From NCBI GenBank assembly GCA_963828255.1, contig CAWHDZ010000027.1, positions 96,001 through 160,000 on the forward strand: 64,000 nucleotides of DNA, read 5' to 3'. Origin of the DNA: an uncultured delta proteobacterium (lineage in GTDB: Bacteria > Myxococcota > Myxococcia > Myxococcales > Anaeromyxobacteraceae). Position numbers and translations under genes: made by a program. Below, piece by piece: positions 42,939 through 53,019 of this stretch (its first letter is position 1; every line of letters begins with the position of its first letter). The notes below the pieces were generated by a model. The model did no database searches, was not told the DNA's origin, and worked only from the letters and a program-made list of their open reading frames with translations.

Positions 42939-43368
42939 TGCACGCCGCGCTGGCCGGGCACTGCCCCTTGAACTGGCTCCCCTCGCGAATGGCCGCAGGG
43001 ACGCTCCCCCGCTCCACGTCCTCGAAGCCGTCGCGCAGCGCCCGCTCCCTCACGGTCGTGGTCAGGATGTACAGGTCCCGGATCCCGAGCCCCCGGGCCA
43101 GCGCCACGGCCGCGTCGTGCAGCGTGGCCCCGACGCCTCGTCGCCGGAACGCGGGGGCCACCGCGAACGACCGGAGCAACCCTGCCTCCCCGTGCACCTC
43201 GAGCCCGATGCATCCCGCAAGGTCCCCGCCCTCGCGGGCGACCAGGAGCCGCTGGGATCCCGTTCCGTCCACGTCGTCGGGGGAGAGGGCGCAGCCCCGG
43301 AGGAGATCGCGAATCGCCGGAAGGTCGCCGGCCGCCGCCGGTCCGATGTCCATGCCCGACCATACCAT
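42919..43368 (-). CDS. GNAT N-acetyltransferase, ArsN2-like
   Basis: LLRSFAV....RRRGVG, LYILTTT, C-terminal SQF...CPASAACM; start could be 43353. Confidence 0.75.
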   Translation of the reverse strand: MVWSGMDIGPAAAGDLPAIRDLLRGCALSPDDVDGTGSQRLLVAREGGDLAGCIGLEVHGEAGLLRSFAVAPAFRRRGVGATLHDAAVALARGLGIRDLYILTTTVRERALRDGFEDVERGSVPAAIREGSQFKGQCPASAACMRMRVR

Positions 43369-43376
43369 CGTCCCTT

Positions 43377-44608
43377 CCGATGACCGTCCGTTCCGCGGAC
43401 CTTCGGGAAGTTGGGGCGTGCATGAACGCCCCTATTGACAGTGATTCCGTGAGATTCGCCCCCCGTGAAGCGGTGGCCGAAGGAAGGCTCCTGTCGCTGC
43501 GCAGGAGCCTCGTCCGCGGGACTTCGCCGCGCCTGGCGGGGTTCGAGATCTCCCGGTGATTGGACGTGGGGGCGACGATCCTCGTGCGTCTCAGGAGGGC
43601 CGAAAATCGCGTGAGACACTGCCTTTCATGAACGACGACACACTTCTCGAGGCACGCTCCTTCCACTCCCGACTCATCGATCTTCTCCGGTCCGAGTTCG
43701 TCTCCCTGGGGGCTTTCCTCGAGGCCCTGGCGGAGTTCGACCGTCGAAAGCTCTTCCGCACCCTCGGCCACGCGGACCTCTTCGCGTATCTCCACAAGGG
43801 GCTGAAGCTCTCCCGCGCGGCGGCTCATCACCGACGCGCCGCCGCCTGGCTGGTCCAGCGATTCCCCGAGGTGCTGGAACCGATCCGCGAGGGGAAGCTG
43901 TGCTTCACAACCGCGGCGGTCCTTGCCTCGGTGGCGACGGAGGAGAACCTGGCCGAGGTGCTTCCGCGATTCCACGGCCTGTCCAAGCAGGAGGCGCTGG
44001 AACTGGCGGCGGAGTTGAAGCCCCGGACGGTGGTGCCGACGCGGACGGTGGTGACCCGGGTGGAACGGACGGTTCCGGAAATTCGCCCAGGCGAACTTTG
44101 GGCGCCCCGGTCGGAGGTGGAGCGGCCCGTCGTGGAGCGGACGGTCGTGGAGCCGATGACCGCGACGTCGAGCCGCATGCACATCTCGGTTTCCCGGGAG
44201 TTCCTGGCGCTCCTGAAGAAGGCAAGGGCGGGGCAGTCGCACGTGCAGCCAGGAGCAACCGACGAGCAGGTCCTCACCGCTGCGCTCGAGTTGCTCATCG
44301 AGAAGCAGGCGAAGCGGAAGGCCTGCGTGCCGGCCAGGGTGAAGCGCGAGGTCGTGAAGCGAGACGAGGGGAAGTGCCAGTGGAAACTCGCCGACGGTGG
44401 GGTCTGCGGAGCGACCGCGAGGCTGGAGATCGACCACGTTCAGCCACGGGGGAAGGGGGGACCATCAACGGTCGAGAACTGCCGCGTCCTTTGCCGGTCC
44501 CATAACCTCGAAGCCGCCCGCCAGACCTACGGCGACGCGCACATGGACCTGTTCACCCGCTCATCCCCGGGCGACGCCCCGCTGGCGCGGGAGGAAGTGG
44601 CGCCATAC
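43377..44608 (+). mobile_element. Putative HNH-encoding repetitive element, copy 1 (structured leader plus HNH gene)
   Basis: Shares a non-coding 5' block and coding homology with copy 2 at 51663-52632; homology ends at AREEVAPY. Confidence 0.5.
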
Positions 44609-45040
44609 GGGGAGCGCGGCGAGACGGGCCGGACCGTCCCACCGACCCGGGGACGGTGTTACCCTGCCCCCCCGTGCGCCTCGACTCATACGGCTGGCTC
44701 GTCGTCCTGCAGATCGCCCTCGCGATCCCCACCCTCCTCTCGCTCATCTTCGTCGCGGCCCCCTACGGGCGGCATGCGCGGGACGGATGGGGGCCCACCA
44801 TCCCGGCACGCATCGGCTGGATCGTCATGGAGTCGCCGTCGGTCTGGTTCTTCGCCTGGGTCTACTTCCTCGGCCCGAATGCGATGCAGCCGGTGCCGCT
44901 CTGCTTCCTGGCGATGTGGCAGCTCCACTACCTCTACCGCTCCCTCATCTTCCCGTTCCTCATCCGGGCCGAGGGGCGCCGCATGCCGATCACCATCCCG
45001 GCCATGGCAATCGCCTTCAACCTGCTCAACGACTGGGTGA
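43628..45040 (+). CDS. HNH endonuclease domain protein (conserved part ends about 44608; ORF reads on into the next gene)
   Basis: RD..KCQW......CG, EIDHVQPRGKGG, NCRVLCRSHN; ATG at 43628. Confidence 0.85.
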   Translation: MNDDTLLEARSFHSRLIDLLRSEFVSLGAFLEALAEFDRRKLFRTLGHADLFAYLHKGLKLSRAAAHHRRAAAWLVQRFPEVLEPIREGKLCFTTAAVLASVATEENLAEVLPRFHGLSKQEALELAAELKPRTVVPTRTVVTRVERTVPEIRPGELWAPRSEVERPVVERTVVEPMTATSSRMHISVSREFLALLKKARAGQSHVQPGATDEQVLTAALELLIEKQAKRKACVPARVKREVVKRDEGKCQWKLADGGVCGATARLEIDHVQPRGKGGPSTVENCRVLCRSHNLEAARQTYGDAHMDLFTRSSPGDAPLAREEVAPYGERGETGRTVPPTRGRCYPAPPCASTHTAGSSSCRSPSRSPPSSRSSSSRPPTGGMRGTDGGPPSRHASAGSSWSRRRSGSSPGSTSSARMRCSRCRSASWRCGSSTTSTAPSSSRSSSGPRGAACRSPSRPWQSPSTCSTTG

Positions 45041-45429
45041 ACGCGCGCTGGATCTCGTCCGTGGGAACCTACCCGGCGGACTGGTTCCTCTCCTGGCAGT
45101 TCCTCCTCGGCTCGGCCCTCTTCCTGGGAGGCTTCGCACTCAACGTCACCTCCGACCGGACGCTGCGCAACCTGCGCGCCCCCGGCGAGACCGGCTACAA
45201 GATCCCGCGCGGCGGCGCCTTCGAGTACGTCACCGCCCCCAACTACCTGGGGGAGATCGTGGAGTGGACCGGCTGGGCCATCGCCACCTGGTCGCCGGCC
45301 GGCCTGGCCTTCGCCCTCTACACCTTCGCCAACCTCGCCCCCCGCGCCATCACCCACCACCGCTGGTACCGGGAGCGCTTCCCCGACTACCCGCGGGACC
45401 GCAAGGCGCTCCTCCCCTTCCTGCTCTAG
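44674..45429 (+). CDS. 3-oxo-5-alpha-steroid 4-dehydrogenase (SRD5A/DET2 family steroid 5-alpha-reductase)
   Basis: APYGRH, WIVMESPS, HYLYR, GYKIPRGGAFEYVTAPNYLGEIVEW, NLAPRA..HH.WY...FPDYP..RKA. Confidence 0.9.
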   Translation: MRLDSYGWLVVLQIALAIPTLLSLIFVAAPYGRHARDGWGPTIPARIGWIVMESPSVWFFAWVYFLGPNAMQPVPLCFLAMWQLHYLYRSLIFPFLIRAEGRRMPITIPAMAIAFNLLNDWVNARWISSVGTYPADWFLSWQFLLGSALFLGGFALNVTSDRTLRNLRAPGETGYKIPRGGAFEYVTAPNYLGEIVEWTGWAIATWSPAGLAFALYTFANLAPRAITHHRWYRERFPDYPRDRKALLPFLL

Positions 45430-45440
45430 GTGCACGAACA

Positions 45441-46394
45441 GTGAAACTCTTGCTCACCGGCCCGTTCGGAAACATCGGCTCCCACGCCATCCCCGAGCTG
45501 CTCCGCGAGGGGCACCAGGTCCGCGCCTTCGACCTCGACAACCCGGCCACCCGGAAGGTGGCGAGGGACCTCGGCAAGAAGGTCGAGCCGGTCTGGGGCG
45601 ACGTCCGCGACGTCCGCGCCGTGGCCCGCGCCGTGGAGGGGATGGACGCCGTCCTGCACCTCGCCGCGATCATCCCCCCGGGCTCGGACGAGGATCCGGC
45701 CGCCACGCGCGCGGTGAACGTCGAGGGCACCCGCAACGTGGTGAAGGCCTGCCAGGAGCGCTCGCGCAAGCCCAGGCTGCTGCTCGCCTCCACCTTCGAC
45801 GTGCACGGCCACACCCAGTCGAAGCCCCCGCCGCGCCGGGTCGAGGACCCGGTGGTGGGGACCGATCCGTACACCGAGAGCAAGATCGACGCCGAGGCCC
45901 TGGTCCGCGACTCCGGCCTGGAGTGGTGCATCTTCCGCTTCGTCGACGTGCCCATCATCGGCCTGCGCGACCCGCACCCCATCATGTTCGAGATCGGGCT
46001 GCAGAACCGCATCGAGTCGATCCACGCGGACGACGCCGCCACCGCGCTGGCCCGGGCGCTTCGCACGGCGGAGGTCTGGGGACGGACACTCTTCGTGGGC
46101 GGGGGCCCGTCCTGCCAGCTCACCTACCGCGAGTTCCTGACGCGGATGCTCGGCGCCATGGGCATGGAGATGCTGCCCGACGAGGCCTTCAGCGACGCGG
46201 AGTACGCCACCGACTGGGTGGACAGCGCGGAGTCGCAGCGGCTGCTCCGCTACCAGCGGCGCAGCTTCGACGACATCACCGGCGACGTCGCGAAGTGCCT
46301 GGGCTGGAAGAAGGCCTTCGTGCCCATGGCCACGCCCATCGTGCGCCGGAAGATGCTCGAGATGTCGCCCTACTGGAAGCAGCGGCAGAAGTAA
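45441..46394 (+). CDS. Extended SDR, NAD-dependent epimerase / 3-beta-HSD-like
   Basis: TGPFGNIG, HLAA, VNVEGT, YTESK; 11 bp after the reductase stop. Confidence 0.82.
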   Translation: MKLLLTGPFGNIGSHAIPELLREGHQVRAFDLDNPATRKVARDLGKKVEPVWGDVRDVRAVARAVEGMDAVLHLAAIIPPGSDEDPAATRAVNVEGTRNVVKACQERSRKPRLLLASTFDVHGHTQSKPPPRRVEDPVVGTDPYTESKIDAEALVRDSGLEWCIFRFVDVPIIGLRDPHPIMFEIGLQNRIESIHADDAATALARALRTAEVWGRTLFVGGGPSCQLTYREFLTRMLGAMGMEMLPDEAFSDAEYATDWVDSAESQRLLRYQRRSFDDITGDVAKCLGWKKAFVPMATPIVRRKMLEMSPYWKQRQK

Positions 46395-46421
46395 GGCGCG
46401 GCCACCAGGGCCTCGCCTCGC

Positions 46422-47189
46422 CTACTCGCCGCCGGCGCTGCGACGGCCGGCCGCGGGGGCGATGTGGGGCCGTCCGTGGCGCCCGGGGAGCACCTTGGCC
46501 GGACGCGCGGAGGGGCCGGCCGGGATGGCGTCGTCGGGCGGGTTGGTCGCGAAGACCCGGTTCACCAGCGGCGCCATGAGCCCGAGGCTGGTGGCCGCCA
46601 GCTTGCGCAGGGGGTTGCGGGAGATCTCGCCGTTGGGGAGCGGCTGGCTCCAGGCCTTGCCCAGGAGGTCCATGTACATCCCCACGGTCTGCCCCGCGGT
46701 GGCGAAGTCGAGCGTGGAGAGGATCTCGTCGGCGAGGCCGAACGGCATGGAGGTCATGATGGGGCCGCGCATGTACTCGGTGGCCCAGACACCGTCGGTG
46801 AAGTTCATGGCGCGGGCCTGCCCCGGGCCCACCCAGACGCGGTCGCCCGGCTTGTAGATCCGCTTCTCGAACTGCCCCTCGCCGAAGTAGTGCATCTCGC
46901 CGTCGATGACGGTGTCCCAGAAGCCGACGGCGTGGCGCCCCGAGTGCCCCTCCGATCCGATGGGGGTGCCCCAGATCATGAGGTATTCCATGGACGACGC
47001 GAAGTAGAGCTTCATCTGGATCATCGCGCCGCCGGCGATGCTGTACATCCACGGCTGCGAGCGGTCGATCCGGCCCGGGTAGGCATCCTCCCAGGCGTCC
47101 GCGATGGCGTCGAACATCTCCGGCTTGGGCTTGCCGATGCCCTGCATCGAGCACTCGTGGATGACGTCCGGGTCGAAGATGTAGTCCAT
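46422..47189 (-). CDS. ERG2 / sigma-1 receptor family protein (C-8 sterol isomerase-like)
   Basis: YIFDP, AGGAM, ASSMEYLMIWGTPIGSEGHSGRH, WATEYMRGPI, PFGLAD...STLD match the ERG2/SIGMAR1 signature. Confidence 0.88.
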   Translation of the reverse strand: MDYIFDPDVIHECSMQGIGKPKPEMFDAIADAWEDAYPGRIDRSQPWMYSIAGGAMIQMKLYFASSMEYLMIWGTPIGSEGHSGRHAVGFWDTVIDGEMHYFGEGQFEKRIYKPGDRVWVGPGQARAMNFTDGVWATEYMRGPIMTSMPFGLADEILSTLDFATAGQTVGMYMDLLGKAWSQPLPNGEISRNPLRKLAATSLGLMAPLVNRVFATNPPDDAIPAGPSARPAKVLPGRHGRPHIAPAAGRRSAGGE

Positions 47190-47236
47190 GTCCTTGGGGC
47201 TCCGGTGGGGTGGGAGGGTGGGAGACGATCCCGACT

Positions 47237-48289
47237 TTACAACGTCTCGACGCGCTGCGCCCGCCCGGGGCGGCTGGGCGGGATGGTTCGGTTCCTCGGG
47301 CTGTCCGGGTCGTTCATCATCCAGGCCCATGCGTCCCGCAGCGACTGCTCCACGGGGCGCGGGGCGTGGCCGAGCTCGTCGCGCGCCTTCCGGTCCCGGA
47401 TCTCGAAGTCGACACCGAGCGTGTGCACCGCGTAGGGGGTGAGGAGGGAGCGTCGCCCGGTGACCTTCTCGAAGATCGGCGCGAAGGCGGCCAGCCCGGC
47501 GGCGATCCCGAGCGGGATGAAGACCCGGGGCGGCCTCCGACCGGCCAGCCTGGCCAGGATGCGCATCATCTCCCGGACGGTCATGCGCTCCCCGGAGAGG
47601 AGGTAGCTCTCGCCCTTGCGCCCTTTCTCGGCGGCCATCACGTGGCCGGTGGCGATGTCGCGGACGTCGATGAAGTCGTAGCACCCGTCCATCCCGGCCG
47701 GCACCGGGAAGCGGGAGAACAGGACGATGACCTCCCCGATCTCCGAGAGCCGGTAGTCGTACGGGCCGAGCACGTAGACCGGGTTCACGATCACCGCGTC
47801 CAGCCCCTCCCGCACCGCTTCGAGGACGATCCGGGACGCCGCCGCCTTGGCCTTCCCGTAGTCGCCGGGGGCGCGCTCCGGGTCGTAACCGGCCTCCTCG
47901 GTGAGCACCCCGCCCGGAGCCGGCTCGGTGAGGGCGTGGACGGAGCTTGTGTAGACCAGCCGCCGCACACCGGCCCGGCGCGCAGCCTCCACCACGTTGC
48001 GCGTCCCGTCCACGTTCACGGTCCGTACGATCTCGATGTCGAGCGAGCTGATGCTCACCACGCCGGCGAGGTGGAAGACCACGTCCACCCCCTCGAGGGC
48101 GGAGGGAAGCGTCTCGGGCCGGAGCACGTTGCCGCGGACCACCTCGACGTCGAGGCCGCGCAGCGCCCGGGCCTCGTCGCCCGGCTCCAGCAGCGCCCGC
48201 ACCTTCTTCCCGCGCCGCAGGAGTTCGCGCACCAGCACGTTGCCGAGGTGGCCGGTGGCGCCGGTGACGGTGGCGGTCTGGAAGTCCAT
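47237..48289 (-). CDS. Extended SDR (HpnA/DFR/3-beta-HSD-like)
   Basis: TGATGHLG, FHLAG, VYTSS, YGKAK, GPYD, DVRDIA. Confidence 0.85.
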   Translation of the reverse strand: MDFQTATVTGATGHLGNVLVRELLRRGKKVRALLEPGDEARALRGLDVEVVRGNVLRPETLPSALEGVDVVFHLAGVVSISSLDIEIVRTVNVDGTRNVVEAARRAGVRRLVYTSSVHALTEPAPGGVLTEEAGYDPERAPGDYGKAKAAASRIVLEAVREGLDAVIVNPVYVLGPYDYRLSEIGEVIVLFSRFPVPAGMDGCYDFIDVRDIATGHVMAAEKGRKGESYLLSGERMTVREMMRILARLAGRRPPRVFIPLGIAAGLAAFAPIFEKVTGRRSLLTPYAVHTLGVDFEIRDRKARDELGHAPRPVEQSLRDAWAWMMNDPDSPRNRTIPPSRPGRAQRVETL

Positions 48290-48305
48290 GTTCCCGGGGT
48301 TCCTT

Positions 48306-48812
48306 TCAGGAGGAGGCGAGGAGCGCCTCGAGGGTCGCCTGCCGGTGGGCGAAGGTACGTGCCATCCGGGGGCCGACGAACGATCGCTCCGCCAGCTCCC
48401 CGAGCACGCCCATCCCCACATCGTATTCGAGAACGTCCCGGACCAACGTGCCGTCCCGCCCACCCCCCTCGCGGGCCTCGAACTCGTGGCGGTGCTCCCA
48501 GCCCCGGAACGGCCCCCGATCCTGGACGTCGGCGAAGTGCCGGAGCCGCTCGAACTCCACGATCCGCGCCACCCACGGGGTGCGGAACGGCAGGGGCGGG
48601 AAGAGCTTCACCGAGACCTCGATGACGGTGCCCACCCCCGCCTCGGGGCTGCCGGGAGCCGCGCCGGGCGGGGAGACCCGATCCACCCGGACGAGCTCCG
48701 CGCCCAGTTCCCGCGGCATGATCCGGGGCAGGTTGAGCGGGTCGGAGAAGAAGGCGAAGACCCGCGGGAGCGGAACGGGGACCCACTGCTCGAAGCGGAG
48801 TCGCTGGCTCAT
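48306..48812 (-). CDS. SRPBCC (START/Bet v 1-like) family protein
   Basis: VFAFFSDPLNLPRI.P, F.D.Q..GPF..WEHRHEF, F.HR. Confidence 0.85.
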   Translation of the reverse strand: MSQRLRFEQWVPVPLPRVFAFFSDPLNLPRIMPRELGAELVRVDRVSPPGAAPGSPEAGVGTVIEVSVKLFPPLPFRTPWVARIVEFERLRHFADVQDRGPFRGWEHRHEFEAREGGGRDGTLVRDVLEYDVGMGVLGELAERSFVGPRMARTFAHRQATLEALLASS

Positions 48813-51662: not shown

Positions 51663-52632
51663 TCGAAGGTCCGCGGCGCGGACCATCGGCCAGATGGGGC
51701 GTTCACTGTCAGTCGCTTGACGCGTTTTCGACGGAATCGCGCTGAGCGGGCGGGACGTCGCGAGAACATGGCTGGGCATCTACCGGCAGCTCGGGTTCCC
51801 GAACCTCTTCGCGTACCTGCTCCGGGAGGTCGGGCTGTCCCGGGGTTCGGCCTTCTACCGACAGGTCGCGACCCGGCTCCTGCAGGACTTTCCGGAAATC
51901 GCGGAGCCACTGCGAGACGGACGGCTTTGCATCTCGAACGTCCCGCAGCTCGCCAAGGTGATGACCGAGCAGAACCGGGCCACGGTGATGCAGAAATTCT
52001 TCCACTGCTCGAAGCAGGAGGCGAAGCAGGTGGTGGCGGAGATGCTTCCAGCGGAGGTGGTGCCTCGGAGGACGGTCGTCACGGAGGTCCCGTTCGTGGC
52101 GACAGCCCGCGTTCAACCGGTTGAACGCGATCTGACCCACCCCGAAGGCGTGAGGCCCGTCACCGAGGTGCGGAGGACCGTGGTCGAGCCGCTCACCCGG
52201 GACGAGACCCGGATGCACGTGACGGTGTCGCCGGCATTCATGGCCTTGCTGAAGAAGGCCAGGGCGGGGCAGTCGCACGTGCAGCCGCGCGCGACCGACG
52301 AGCAGGTGCTCCCGGCGGCGCTGGAACTGCTCATCGAGAAGCAGGGGAAGCGGAAGGCTTCCGTGCCGGCGAAGGTGAAGCGAGAGGTCCGCAAGCGGGA
52401 TGAGGGCAAGTGCCAGTGGAAGCTCGATTCGGGCGGCGTGTGCGGTTCGGAGGTGAGGACGGAGATCGACCACGTGGTGCCGCGCGGGAAGGGCGGGCCA
52501 TCGACGGTTGAGAACTGCAGGGTCCTCTGCAAGGTCCACAACATCGAGGCCGCGCGCCAGGCTTACGGCGACGCGCACATGGATCTGTTCACTCCACGTG
52601 CACCGAGCGCGCGCGAGGAGGTCGCACCCTAC
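51663..52632 (+). mobile_element. Putative HNH-encoding repetitive element, copy 2 (internally deleted)
   Basis: 5' block 51677-51705 is 24/29 identical to 43394-43422; coding homology runs to AREEVAPY. Confidence 0.5.
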
Positions 52633-53019
52633 CTGACCGCATCCGCCATCCCGCCGTTGTCCGGCCTGGCCCAGCTCGTCGGCAGCCGCCCGTCGAACTG
52701 CTCGGGCACGAGCACGTCCGCGCCCAGCGCCGGGGCGCCGGCGGCCCGGGCGGCGAACCCACCGGCGGCGATGCAGGAGTGGGGCGCCGCGTGGCGCACC
52801 ATCTCGATGGCCTCGCGCGCCGGCGGCAGGTGGTCGATGGTGGAGACGGCGATCCCCACCAGCGCAGGCTTCCGCTCCACGCAGGCCACGGCGAGCTGGA
52901 CCGCCGGCGTGTCGGCGCCCAGCACCTCCACCGCGTACCCCTCCAGCTCGAGCAGGTTCGCGGCGATGAGCAGTCCCACGGTGTGGTACTCGCCGGGGGC
53001 CGAGGCGAGCACGGCCTGA
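51778..53019 (+). pseudogene. 5'-truncated HNH endonuclease paralogue
   Basis: Homology to copy 1 begins at IYRQLG (51778) with no in-frame start after the TGA at 51718; about 40 N-terminal residues are missing; HNH motifs intact. Confidence 0.75.

Follow-up and report, generated by a model that had tools for sequence, protein, structure and literature searches.

In a 64,000-nt stretch of genomic DNA from an uncultured member of the Anaeromyxobacteraceae (contig CAWHDZ010000027.1; hereafter the window), five intact open reading frames (ORFs) lay side by side at positions 44674–48812 in two convergent runs, the arrangement that a preliminary description of this DNA had reported. They encoded a steroid 5-alpha-reductase homologue (SRD5A), an extended short-chain dehydrogenase/reductase (SDR1), an ERG2/sigma-1 protein, a second extended SDR (SDR2), and an SRPBCC-fold protein, which that description had taken together for a sterol-modification cassette. 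Comparison of 79 loci anchored on ERG2 showed that the conserved unit was not this set of five genes; it consisted of SRD5A, SDR1, and ERG2, usually with a classical SDR. This unit is a real, cross-phylum, uncharacterised module. The source genome (4.3 Mb) was 99.21% complete and 6.61% contaminated, the GC and GC3 of the cluster genes equalled those of the adjoining host genes, and the closest matches of the window ERG2 were Anaeromyxobacteraceae records.

SRD5A (44674–45429, plus strand, 251 aa), a core member, was assigned to the SRD5A/DET2 family by a PF02544 match above the cut-off (E 9.6e-55) and by full-length matches to solved family members. Among PDB entries it matched PbSRD5A (7C83) at E 3.1e-84, human SRD5A2 at E 6.2e-46, and the enoyl-CoA reductase art-1 at E 6.4e-14. 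PbSRD5A reduces progesterone, its preferred substrate (PMC7815742). SRD5A was thus far nearer to a progesterone reductase than to an enoyl-CoA reductase, which we counted in favor of a steroid substrate. When the residue list of PMC7815742 was mapped onto SRD5A through the 7C83 alignment, 13/13 of the NADPH hydrogen-bonding residues of PbSRD5A were kept, and the NADPH site showed the changes M98 to I97 and V100 to A99. The catalytic Glu/Tyr pair was kept as E53 and Y86, within the motifs ME.PS and HYLYR (M52-E53, H85-Y86) that the preliminary description had recognized; together with the PDB matches and the NADPH residues, this bore out its assignment of a steroid-type 5-alpha-reductase. SRD5A therefore resembled the NADPH-dependent enzymes PbSRD5A and human SRD5A2 (7BW1) over its full length, in all 13 NADPH residues, and in the catalytic Glu and Tyr. 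It differed from them in its QEY motif, which read M52-E53-Y86 with Met in place of Gln. The M-E..Y pattern was shared by 94 of the 98 distinct bacterial hits, including a Phocaeicola protein from a locus laid out like the isoallolithocholic acid (isoalloLCA) cluster.

SDR1 (45441–46394, plus strand, 317 aa, PF01370/PF01073), a core member of an uncharacterised extended SDR family, started 11 bp past the SRD5A stop, as had been described. The extended-SDR hallmarks (TGxxGxxG, Ser/Tyr/Lys) were present in both SDR1 and SDR2, and the TGxxGxxG motif, N93, S117, Y144, and K148 of SDR1 were invariant in 50/50 aligned relatives. The preliminary description had regarded both SDRs as similar to 3-beta-hydroxysteroid dehydrogenases (3-beta-HSDs). 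For SDR1 this found no clear support in sequence or fold: Epimerase (80.8 bits) slightly outscored 3Beta_HSD (73.2 bits), SDR1 reached no NCBIfam cut-off, and its predicted structure (pLDDT 95) retrieved nothing more specific than generic extended SDRs (17–24% identity), the majority of them nucleotide-sugar enzymes, so that only the gene context suggests a role at C3. These fold matches of a predicted model neither make SDR1 a sugar epimerase nor back a 3-beta-HSD label, and the 3-beta-HSD name borne by the top Atlas cluster for SDR1 was an automatic one. Bacteroidota Atlas clusters and Bacteroidales homologues raised the idea that SDR1 was a Bacteroidetes-type 3-beta-hydroxysteroid dehydrogenase; it was rejected because the SDR of a Phocaeicola cluster matched neither SDR1 nor its profile.

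The third core member, the ERG2/sigma-1 protein (46422–47189, minus strand, 255 aa), showed the features of its family: PF04622 (E 3e-44), a cupin-like fold, and a pocket with an Asp/Glu pair and a Tyr. It matched sigma-1 at E 2.9e-28, and its predicted structure (pLDDT 85) superimposed on sigma-1 receptor structures at a root-mean-square deviation (rmsd) of 1.4–1.6 Å, with one extra C-terminal helix. Eukaryotic members have an N-terminal transmembrane helix, of which hydropathy revealed no equivalent here (19-residue maximum 1.23), and the sigma-1 alignment began at residue 3. Residues Y69, D92, and E138 corresponded to Y103, D126, and E172 of sigma-1, named in PMC10094450, and were invariant in 22/22 clade-B rows of a bacterial ERG2 tree. 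This tree was quick and unrooted, and its 40 rows included no characterised fungal ERG2; like the three other trees, also quick and drawn with midpoint roots, it carried SH-aLRT support only. It split into two clades (SH-aLRT 100): clade A with Enhygromyxa salina, Paraliomyxa, and two EukProt sequences, and clade B with the window ERG2 and spirochaete, actinobacterial, and other myxococcal proteins. The clade-B pocket was unlike that of clade A at many positions, and the position of D126 was Phe in 17/18 clade-A rows. We therefore rejected membership of the window ERG2 in clade A, the ERG2 of sterol-making myxobacteria. While the ERG2/sigma-1 assignment of the preliminary description stood, the delta8-delta7 isomerase role it had attached cannot be assumed for a protein of a separate clade with 38% identity to the Enhygromyxa salina ERG2; the window protein is more broadly a predicted ring double-bond isomerase. 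In a separate observation, one 360-aa protein (P0374) had an ERG2 domain fused with a PF04075 domain, that of F420H2-dependent reductases; such a fusion, a single sequence, would fit an isomerase that feeds a reductase.

SDR2 (47237–48289, minus strand, 350 aa, PF01370/PF01073) was an accessory gene of the HpnA/SdmB group that adjoined ERG2 in this genus only. Its NCBIfam scores were 260.6 bits to HpnA (cut-off 367.65) and 225.4 bits to SdmB (NF052578, cut-off 600). In a tree of 63 rows, a clade with support 86 took in SDR2 and all 14 SRD5A-adjacent rows and was sister (95) to five rows located near oxidosqualene cyclase (OSC) genes; the three of these tested scored best to SdmB, below its cut-off. 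The three HpnA rows tested passed the HpnA cut-off and fell outside the SDR2 clade. SDR2 was accordingly not accepted as HpnA (below the TIGR03466 cut-off, outside the HpnA clade, no hopene cyclase found in the genome) or as SdmB itself (225 bits against 600, no SdmA nearby, no cyclase found in the genome). Its likeness to the sterol C4-decarboxylase/C3-reductases SdmB/SdmC (PMC10202945) lies in the sister position of its clade to OSC-near SdmB-like proteins, and through this relationship to sterol C3 reductases the earlier 3-beta-HSD-like reading was kept for SDR2. SDR2-like genes also flanked SRD5A in Dehalococcoidia and spirochaetes; these SRD5A-adjacent genes and the tree weakened the notion that SDR2 is a pure bystander. 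The SRPBCC-fold protein (48306–48812, minus strand, 168 aa, Polyketide_cyc, PF03364 E 2.9e-7) is probably outside the module, contrary to its earlier inclusion: it adjoined ERG2 in only 3/79 loci, all from close relatives. A paralogue with 38% identity lay on contig C21 of the source genome.

Partners were counted within 4 kb of ERG2 in the 79 loci, some of which were cut by contig ends. A classical SDR was the commonest (37/79), although it was missing from the window locus, followed by SDR1 (32/79), SRD5A (26/79), SDR2 (9/79), SRPBCC (3/79), and a true 3Beta_HSD-type SDR (3/79), and at least one of these enzymes was present in 56/79. The core was found in Anaeromyxobacteraceae, Myxococcaceae, and Micromonosporaceae in two layouts. 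In Anaeromyxobacteraceae and Micromonosporaceae, SRD5A-SDR1-(classical SDR) converged with ERG2; in a Myxococcaceae genus, SRD5A, classical SDR, ERG2, and SDR1 formed a single run in that order. The neighborhood conservation to be expected of a cassette thus held across phyla for the SRD5A-SDR1-ERG2 core and failed for the five-gene set. The same comparison bears on whether the five genes are unrelated neighbors held together by descent. That is true of SRPBCC and partly of SDR2, and AspT, ADH, and GNAT genes flanked the locus equally steadily within the genus; the core, however, was met again outside the family and in a second phylum, where its flanks and gene order were different, which refutes this reading for the core and makes it extremely improbable as the explanation of the locus.

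Genome-wide counts agreed with this linkage. Of 261 sampled Myxococcota genomes, 26 gave a match to ERG2, 86 to SRD5A, and 17 to SDR1 (E<=1e-40), and 17/17 SDR1 genomes also carried ERG2 and SRD5A; SRD5A was present in 23 of the 26 ERG2-positive genomes versus 63/235 others. In Anaeromyxobacteraceae, the identical 10 of 34 genomes carried SRD5A, SDR1, and ERG2, and one more carried ERG2 only. SRD5A occurred in 36 and the classical SDR in 42 of the 46 ERG2-positive genomes not labelled Myxococcota. Among 27 ERG2-positive spirochaetes these numbers were 22 and 24, versus 16 and 4 in 110 sampled spirochaetes without ERG2, for which the classical-SDR search scored fewer candidates per genome. The grouping of ERG2 with SDR1 and SRD5A is beyond chance. 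Of 121 Micromonosporaceae genomes, 13 had SDR1, adjoined by SRD5A in 7, and the Micromonosporaceae SRD5As nested with those of Anaeromyxobacteraceae (support 87). This nesting suggested transfer of the unit, and the core has likely spread horizontally. A plasmid search gave two SRD5A matches and no ERG2 match. In 40 further Myxococcota SRD5A loci, an SDR2-like gene lay directly upstream in 7, a 3Beta_HSD-type SDR in 3, and a classical SDR in 1.

The best NCBIfam model of the classical SDR was mycolate reductase (133–144 bits), followed by 7-beta-hydroxysteroid dehydrogenase (7-beta-HSDH; 105–115 bits, in the rows listing both), and its best PDB match was 5FYD/5GT9. 5FYD is the Collinsella 7-beta-HSDH. 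A family member in the source genome (contig C40, 136116–136901) was considered as a relocated ERG2 partner and rejected, because it fell together with a paralogue not adjacent to ERG2 that ERG2-negative genomes carry as well; this genus has therefore lost the ERG2-adjacent copy, and our guess is that SDR2, which lies beside ERG2 instead, replaces it functionally. The module might alternatively remove or invert an oxygen at C7, with the classical SDR reducing 7-oxo-sterols, the ERG2-like protein dehydrating or isomerising at C7, and SDR1 and SRD5A finishing a saturated product. The frequency of the classical SDR beside ERG2, its second NCBIfam model, and its best PDB match would fit such chemistry, and C7-C8 is the site of ERG2 action (PMC10094450). 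Set against this, the classical SDR scored far under the 7-beta-HSDH cut-off of 300 and this genus retains only the non-adjacent paralogue, and we consider action at C7 very unlikely. The mycolate reductase score also raises a non-steroid lipid pathway, in which SRD5A would reduce an enoyl or prenyl group, the ERG2-like protein would act as dehydratase or isomerase, and the classical SDR would be a keto-acyl reductase. This reading would fit the presence of enoyl-CoA reductases in the family of SRD5A, a host genome that appears to make no steroid, and the many pocket differences between clades B and A. On the other hand, SRD5A had E values of 3e-84 and 6e-46 to steroid reductases versus 6e-14 to an enoyl reductase, SDR2 stood beside SdmB-like sterol enzymes in the tree, and no condensing enzyme or acyl carrier protein recurred in the loci. 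A non-steroid lipid substrate is thus quite unlikely.

In the source genome we found no hopene or oxidosqualene cyclase, squalene epoxidase, squalene synthase, P450 (including CYP51), or KstD. The preliminary description had noted that squalene epoxidase and oxidosqualene cyclase were missing from the window and had called for a genome-wide check of sqe, osc, cyp51, and shc; the window statement proved correct, and the check returned none of them. The ERG24 search was weak, as no control genome gave a match. As far as the pathways searched for go, the host seems to have no capacity for either making steroids or breaking them down. Since no synthesis genes were found, any steroid substrate would be foreign, and since no degradation genes were found, it would only be remodelled. 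None of the 10 module-bearing Anaeromyxobacteraceae genomes had a cyclase match, and in the module-bearing Myxococcaceae genus a cyclase occurred in 5/5 genomes, both of those tested passing the OSC cut-off, so that the module there could act on home-made sterols.

For the source organism, the reading that we regard as having an even chance of being correct is an oxygen-independent route from sterol through 3-ketone to 5-alpha-stanol, acting on steroids taken from outside. An SDR would first oxidise the 3-beta-hydroxyl to a ketone, and the ERG2-like protein, through its Asp92/Glu138 pair, would move a double bond of the ring system, either from delta5 to delta4 or inside ring B. SRD5A, the membrane reductase, would then add an NADPH hydride at C5 to give the 5-alpha-3-ketone, and an SDR would reduce the ketone back to the alcohol. 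All steps would use NAD(P) cofactors and no oxygen. The product might be put to membrane use, or the conversion might be a detoxification. In favor of the route we counted, besides the residues kept in SRD5A, the genome-wide co-occurrence counts, and the missing synthesis and KstD genes, the occurrence of the core in two gene orders together with the nesting of Micromonosporaceae SRD5As with those of Anaeromyxobacteraceae; the sister position of SDR2 to SdmB-like proteins, together with the oxidation of lanosterol to lanosterone by Calothrix SdmB alone (PMC10202945); and, from other genomes, a clade-A ERG2 near PRK07121 and SRD5A (genome G106, below) and the P0374 fusion.

The same enzymes could instead inactivate steroids that are small or polar (hormones, compounds like bile acids, or steroidal toxins of fungi and plants) by reducing the A ring and epimerising hydroxyls, with no action on membrane sterols. 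The progesterone preference of PbSRD5A (PMC7815742), the action of a gut Bacteroidetes 5-alpha-reductase cluster on bile acids (bioRxiv 2021.01.08.425963), the progesterone and dehydroepiandrosterone sulfate bound in sigma-1 structures, and the lack of clear membrane anchors in ERG2, SDR1, and SDR2 all point that way. However, no flavin 5-beta-reductase gene was found in the locus, and the SDR of a Phocaeicola 5-alpha-reductase cluster was unrelated to SDR1, SDR2, and the classical SDR; we judge this alternative unlikely.

Several observations weigh against the sterol-to-stanol route. The QEY Gln is Met in SRD5A, whereas Q56A/L abolishes the activity of human SRD5A2 (PMC7815742), and the nearest solved relatives of SDR1 are nucleotide-sugar enzymes. 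The six nearest relatives of SDR2 outside the genus sit on contigs other than that of SRD5A, and mycolate reductase is a better-scoring model for the classical SDR than 7-beta-HSDH, both below cut-off. No partner lay within 4 kb in 23/79 ERG2 loci, 6/13 Micromonosporaceae SDR1 loci had none in their 1.5-kb flanks, and 29 of the 40 further Myxococcota SRD5A loci had none of the SDRs named. The co-occurrence counts come from related genomes, which are not independent samples. No uptake gene linked to the module was found, and, according to the supplement of PMC8237579, characterised bacterial ERG2 proteins were still lacking in 2021.

Other loci with related genes were observed along the way. 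In genome G106 (L083:7957–11729 and L204:1–8335), a large candidate steroid cluster placed a clade-A ERG2 between a SnoaL-fold gene and a gene for the FAD oxidoreductase PRK07121, which adjoined SRD5A; within about 15 kb further lay GMC-like and aldehyde-dehydrogenase-like genes (assigned from their N-terminal sequence alone), together with genes for a 3-beta-HSD-like SDR, an SDR2-like protein, and a P450. A GDSL/SGNH hydrolase gene adjoined SRD5A in many spirochaete genomes (L206, L222, L224, L226–L228, L230–L232; one copy Pfam-confirmed, the others assigned by sequence), and its product could release sterols from esters. In three spirochaete loci (L052, L074, and L078), ERG2 adjoined a strong 3Beta_HSD-type SDR (227.6 bits for the L074 copy). 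A small-genome Myxococcaceae genus carried OSC, squalene synthase, HpnI-like glycosyltransferase, and MMPL transporter genes together (L087:6588–15648, genome G067), a possible sterol glycoside cluster.

Upstream in the window, a multicopy HNH endonuclease ORF outside the module (43556–45040, plus strand, PF01844) overlapped the first 367 nt of SRD5A in a different frame. It was inserted at the module in the window locus only, among the 79 ERG2 loci, and a contig from a close strain represented the empty allele, joining 43364 to 44651 with the HNH ORF missing between. The family gave 32 tblastn pieces in the source genome, comprising the window copies at 43556–45040 and 51958–53019, each of which overlapped an adjacent gene, and about 20 other places. 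Most copies ended at a common A-R-E-E/D-V-A-x-Y-like motif with no common stop and then ran 14–200 codons into unrelated flanks, so the family looks like a mobile element bringing no stop codon of its own. No clear Shine-Dalgarno sequence preceded the SRD5A GTG in the window or in five relatives; a TAC(C/G)CT hexamer lay about 7–10 nt upstream in all of them (window 44655–44676), and the transcript is possibly leaderless. A protein of about 280 aa with no Pfam match preceded the ERG2 run, upstream of SDR2 or ERG2, in 10 loci of the same genus (L004–L014). Its gene was missing from that place in the window, and two 30% relatives lay elsewhere in the source genome. Assembled contigs of four RNA-library runs covered cluster genes with pieces from relatives; such contigs cannot show transcription or co-transcription and were not used as evidence of expression or habitat.

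It is possible, though doubtful, that clade-B ERG2 represents a new soluble kind of steroid isomerase that feeds a 5-alpha-reductase within a horizontally spread module, through which organisms that make no sterols themselves, living in soil, peat, sediment, and insect guts, convert the sterols of eukaryotes to 5-alpha-stanols. If so, the genes behind the conversion of stenols to stanols in the environment could be named, and a bacterial ERG2/sigma-1 protein would have an enzyme activity for the first time; if the substrate is non-steroidal, the clade would still be an unassigned enzyme family tied to 5-alpha-reductases in several phyla. Stanol/stenol and 5-beta/5-alpha ratios serve to read sediments and fossils, and PMC12362056 names a gene, ismA, for the 5-beta route only. 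A link of the module to 5-alpha-stanol formation is plausible; the connection with anoxic sediments that had been drawn earlier is conjectural, and the carriers include soil actinomycetes and OSC-bearing myxobacteria. With cultured actinomycetes such as Rugosimonospora africana carrying the four-gene module, the 5-alpha route can be put to a direct test, and a small soluble ERG2/sigma-1 protein retaining the sigma-1 Asp/Glu pair is on offer for study.

We found no description of this gene combination in a literature search outside which most subscription journals fell. The absence of SQS, SQE, OSC, and CYP51 matches in the genome set the locus apart from a bacterial sterol biosynthesis cluster. 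With fungal ERG2, the sigma-1 receptor, and myxobacterial ERG2, the window protein shares PF04622, the fold at an rmsd of about 1.5 Å, and the equivalents of Tyr103, Asp126, and Glu172; it differs from the eukaryotic proteins in having no N-terminal membrane helix and an extra C-terminal helix, and from the sterol-making myxobacterial ones in that clade A mostly lacks the Asp126 equivalent and no sterol synthesis genes were found in the window host. The IsmA coprostanol pathway (PMC12362056) is alike in its overall logic, namely SDR oxidation at C3, ring reduction, and re-reduction, and differs in its 5-beta stanol product. The Bacteroidetes isoalloLCA cluster (bioRxiv 10.1101/2021.01.08.425963; PMC13525351) is the closest of the characterised systems, with only the 5-alpha-reductase in common. 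That cluster likewise groups a 5-alpha-reductase with an SDR and proceeds from enone through 5-alpha-ketone to alcohol with no oxygen. The SDRs of our module were unrelated to the SDR of one Phocaeicola massiliensis locus of that layout, a comparison that covered this locus and not the assayed B. dorei proteins. The window module was not identified with the isoalloLCA cluster, as no homologous 3-beta-hydroxysteroid dehydrogenase lay beside its 5-alpha-reductase and, where that cluster has a flavin 5-beta-reductase, the window locus has an ERG2-like gene instead.

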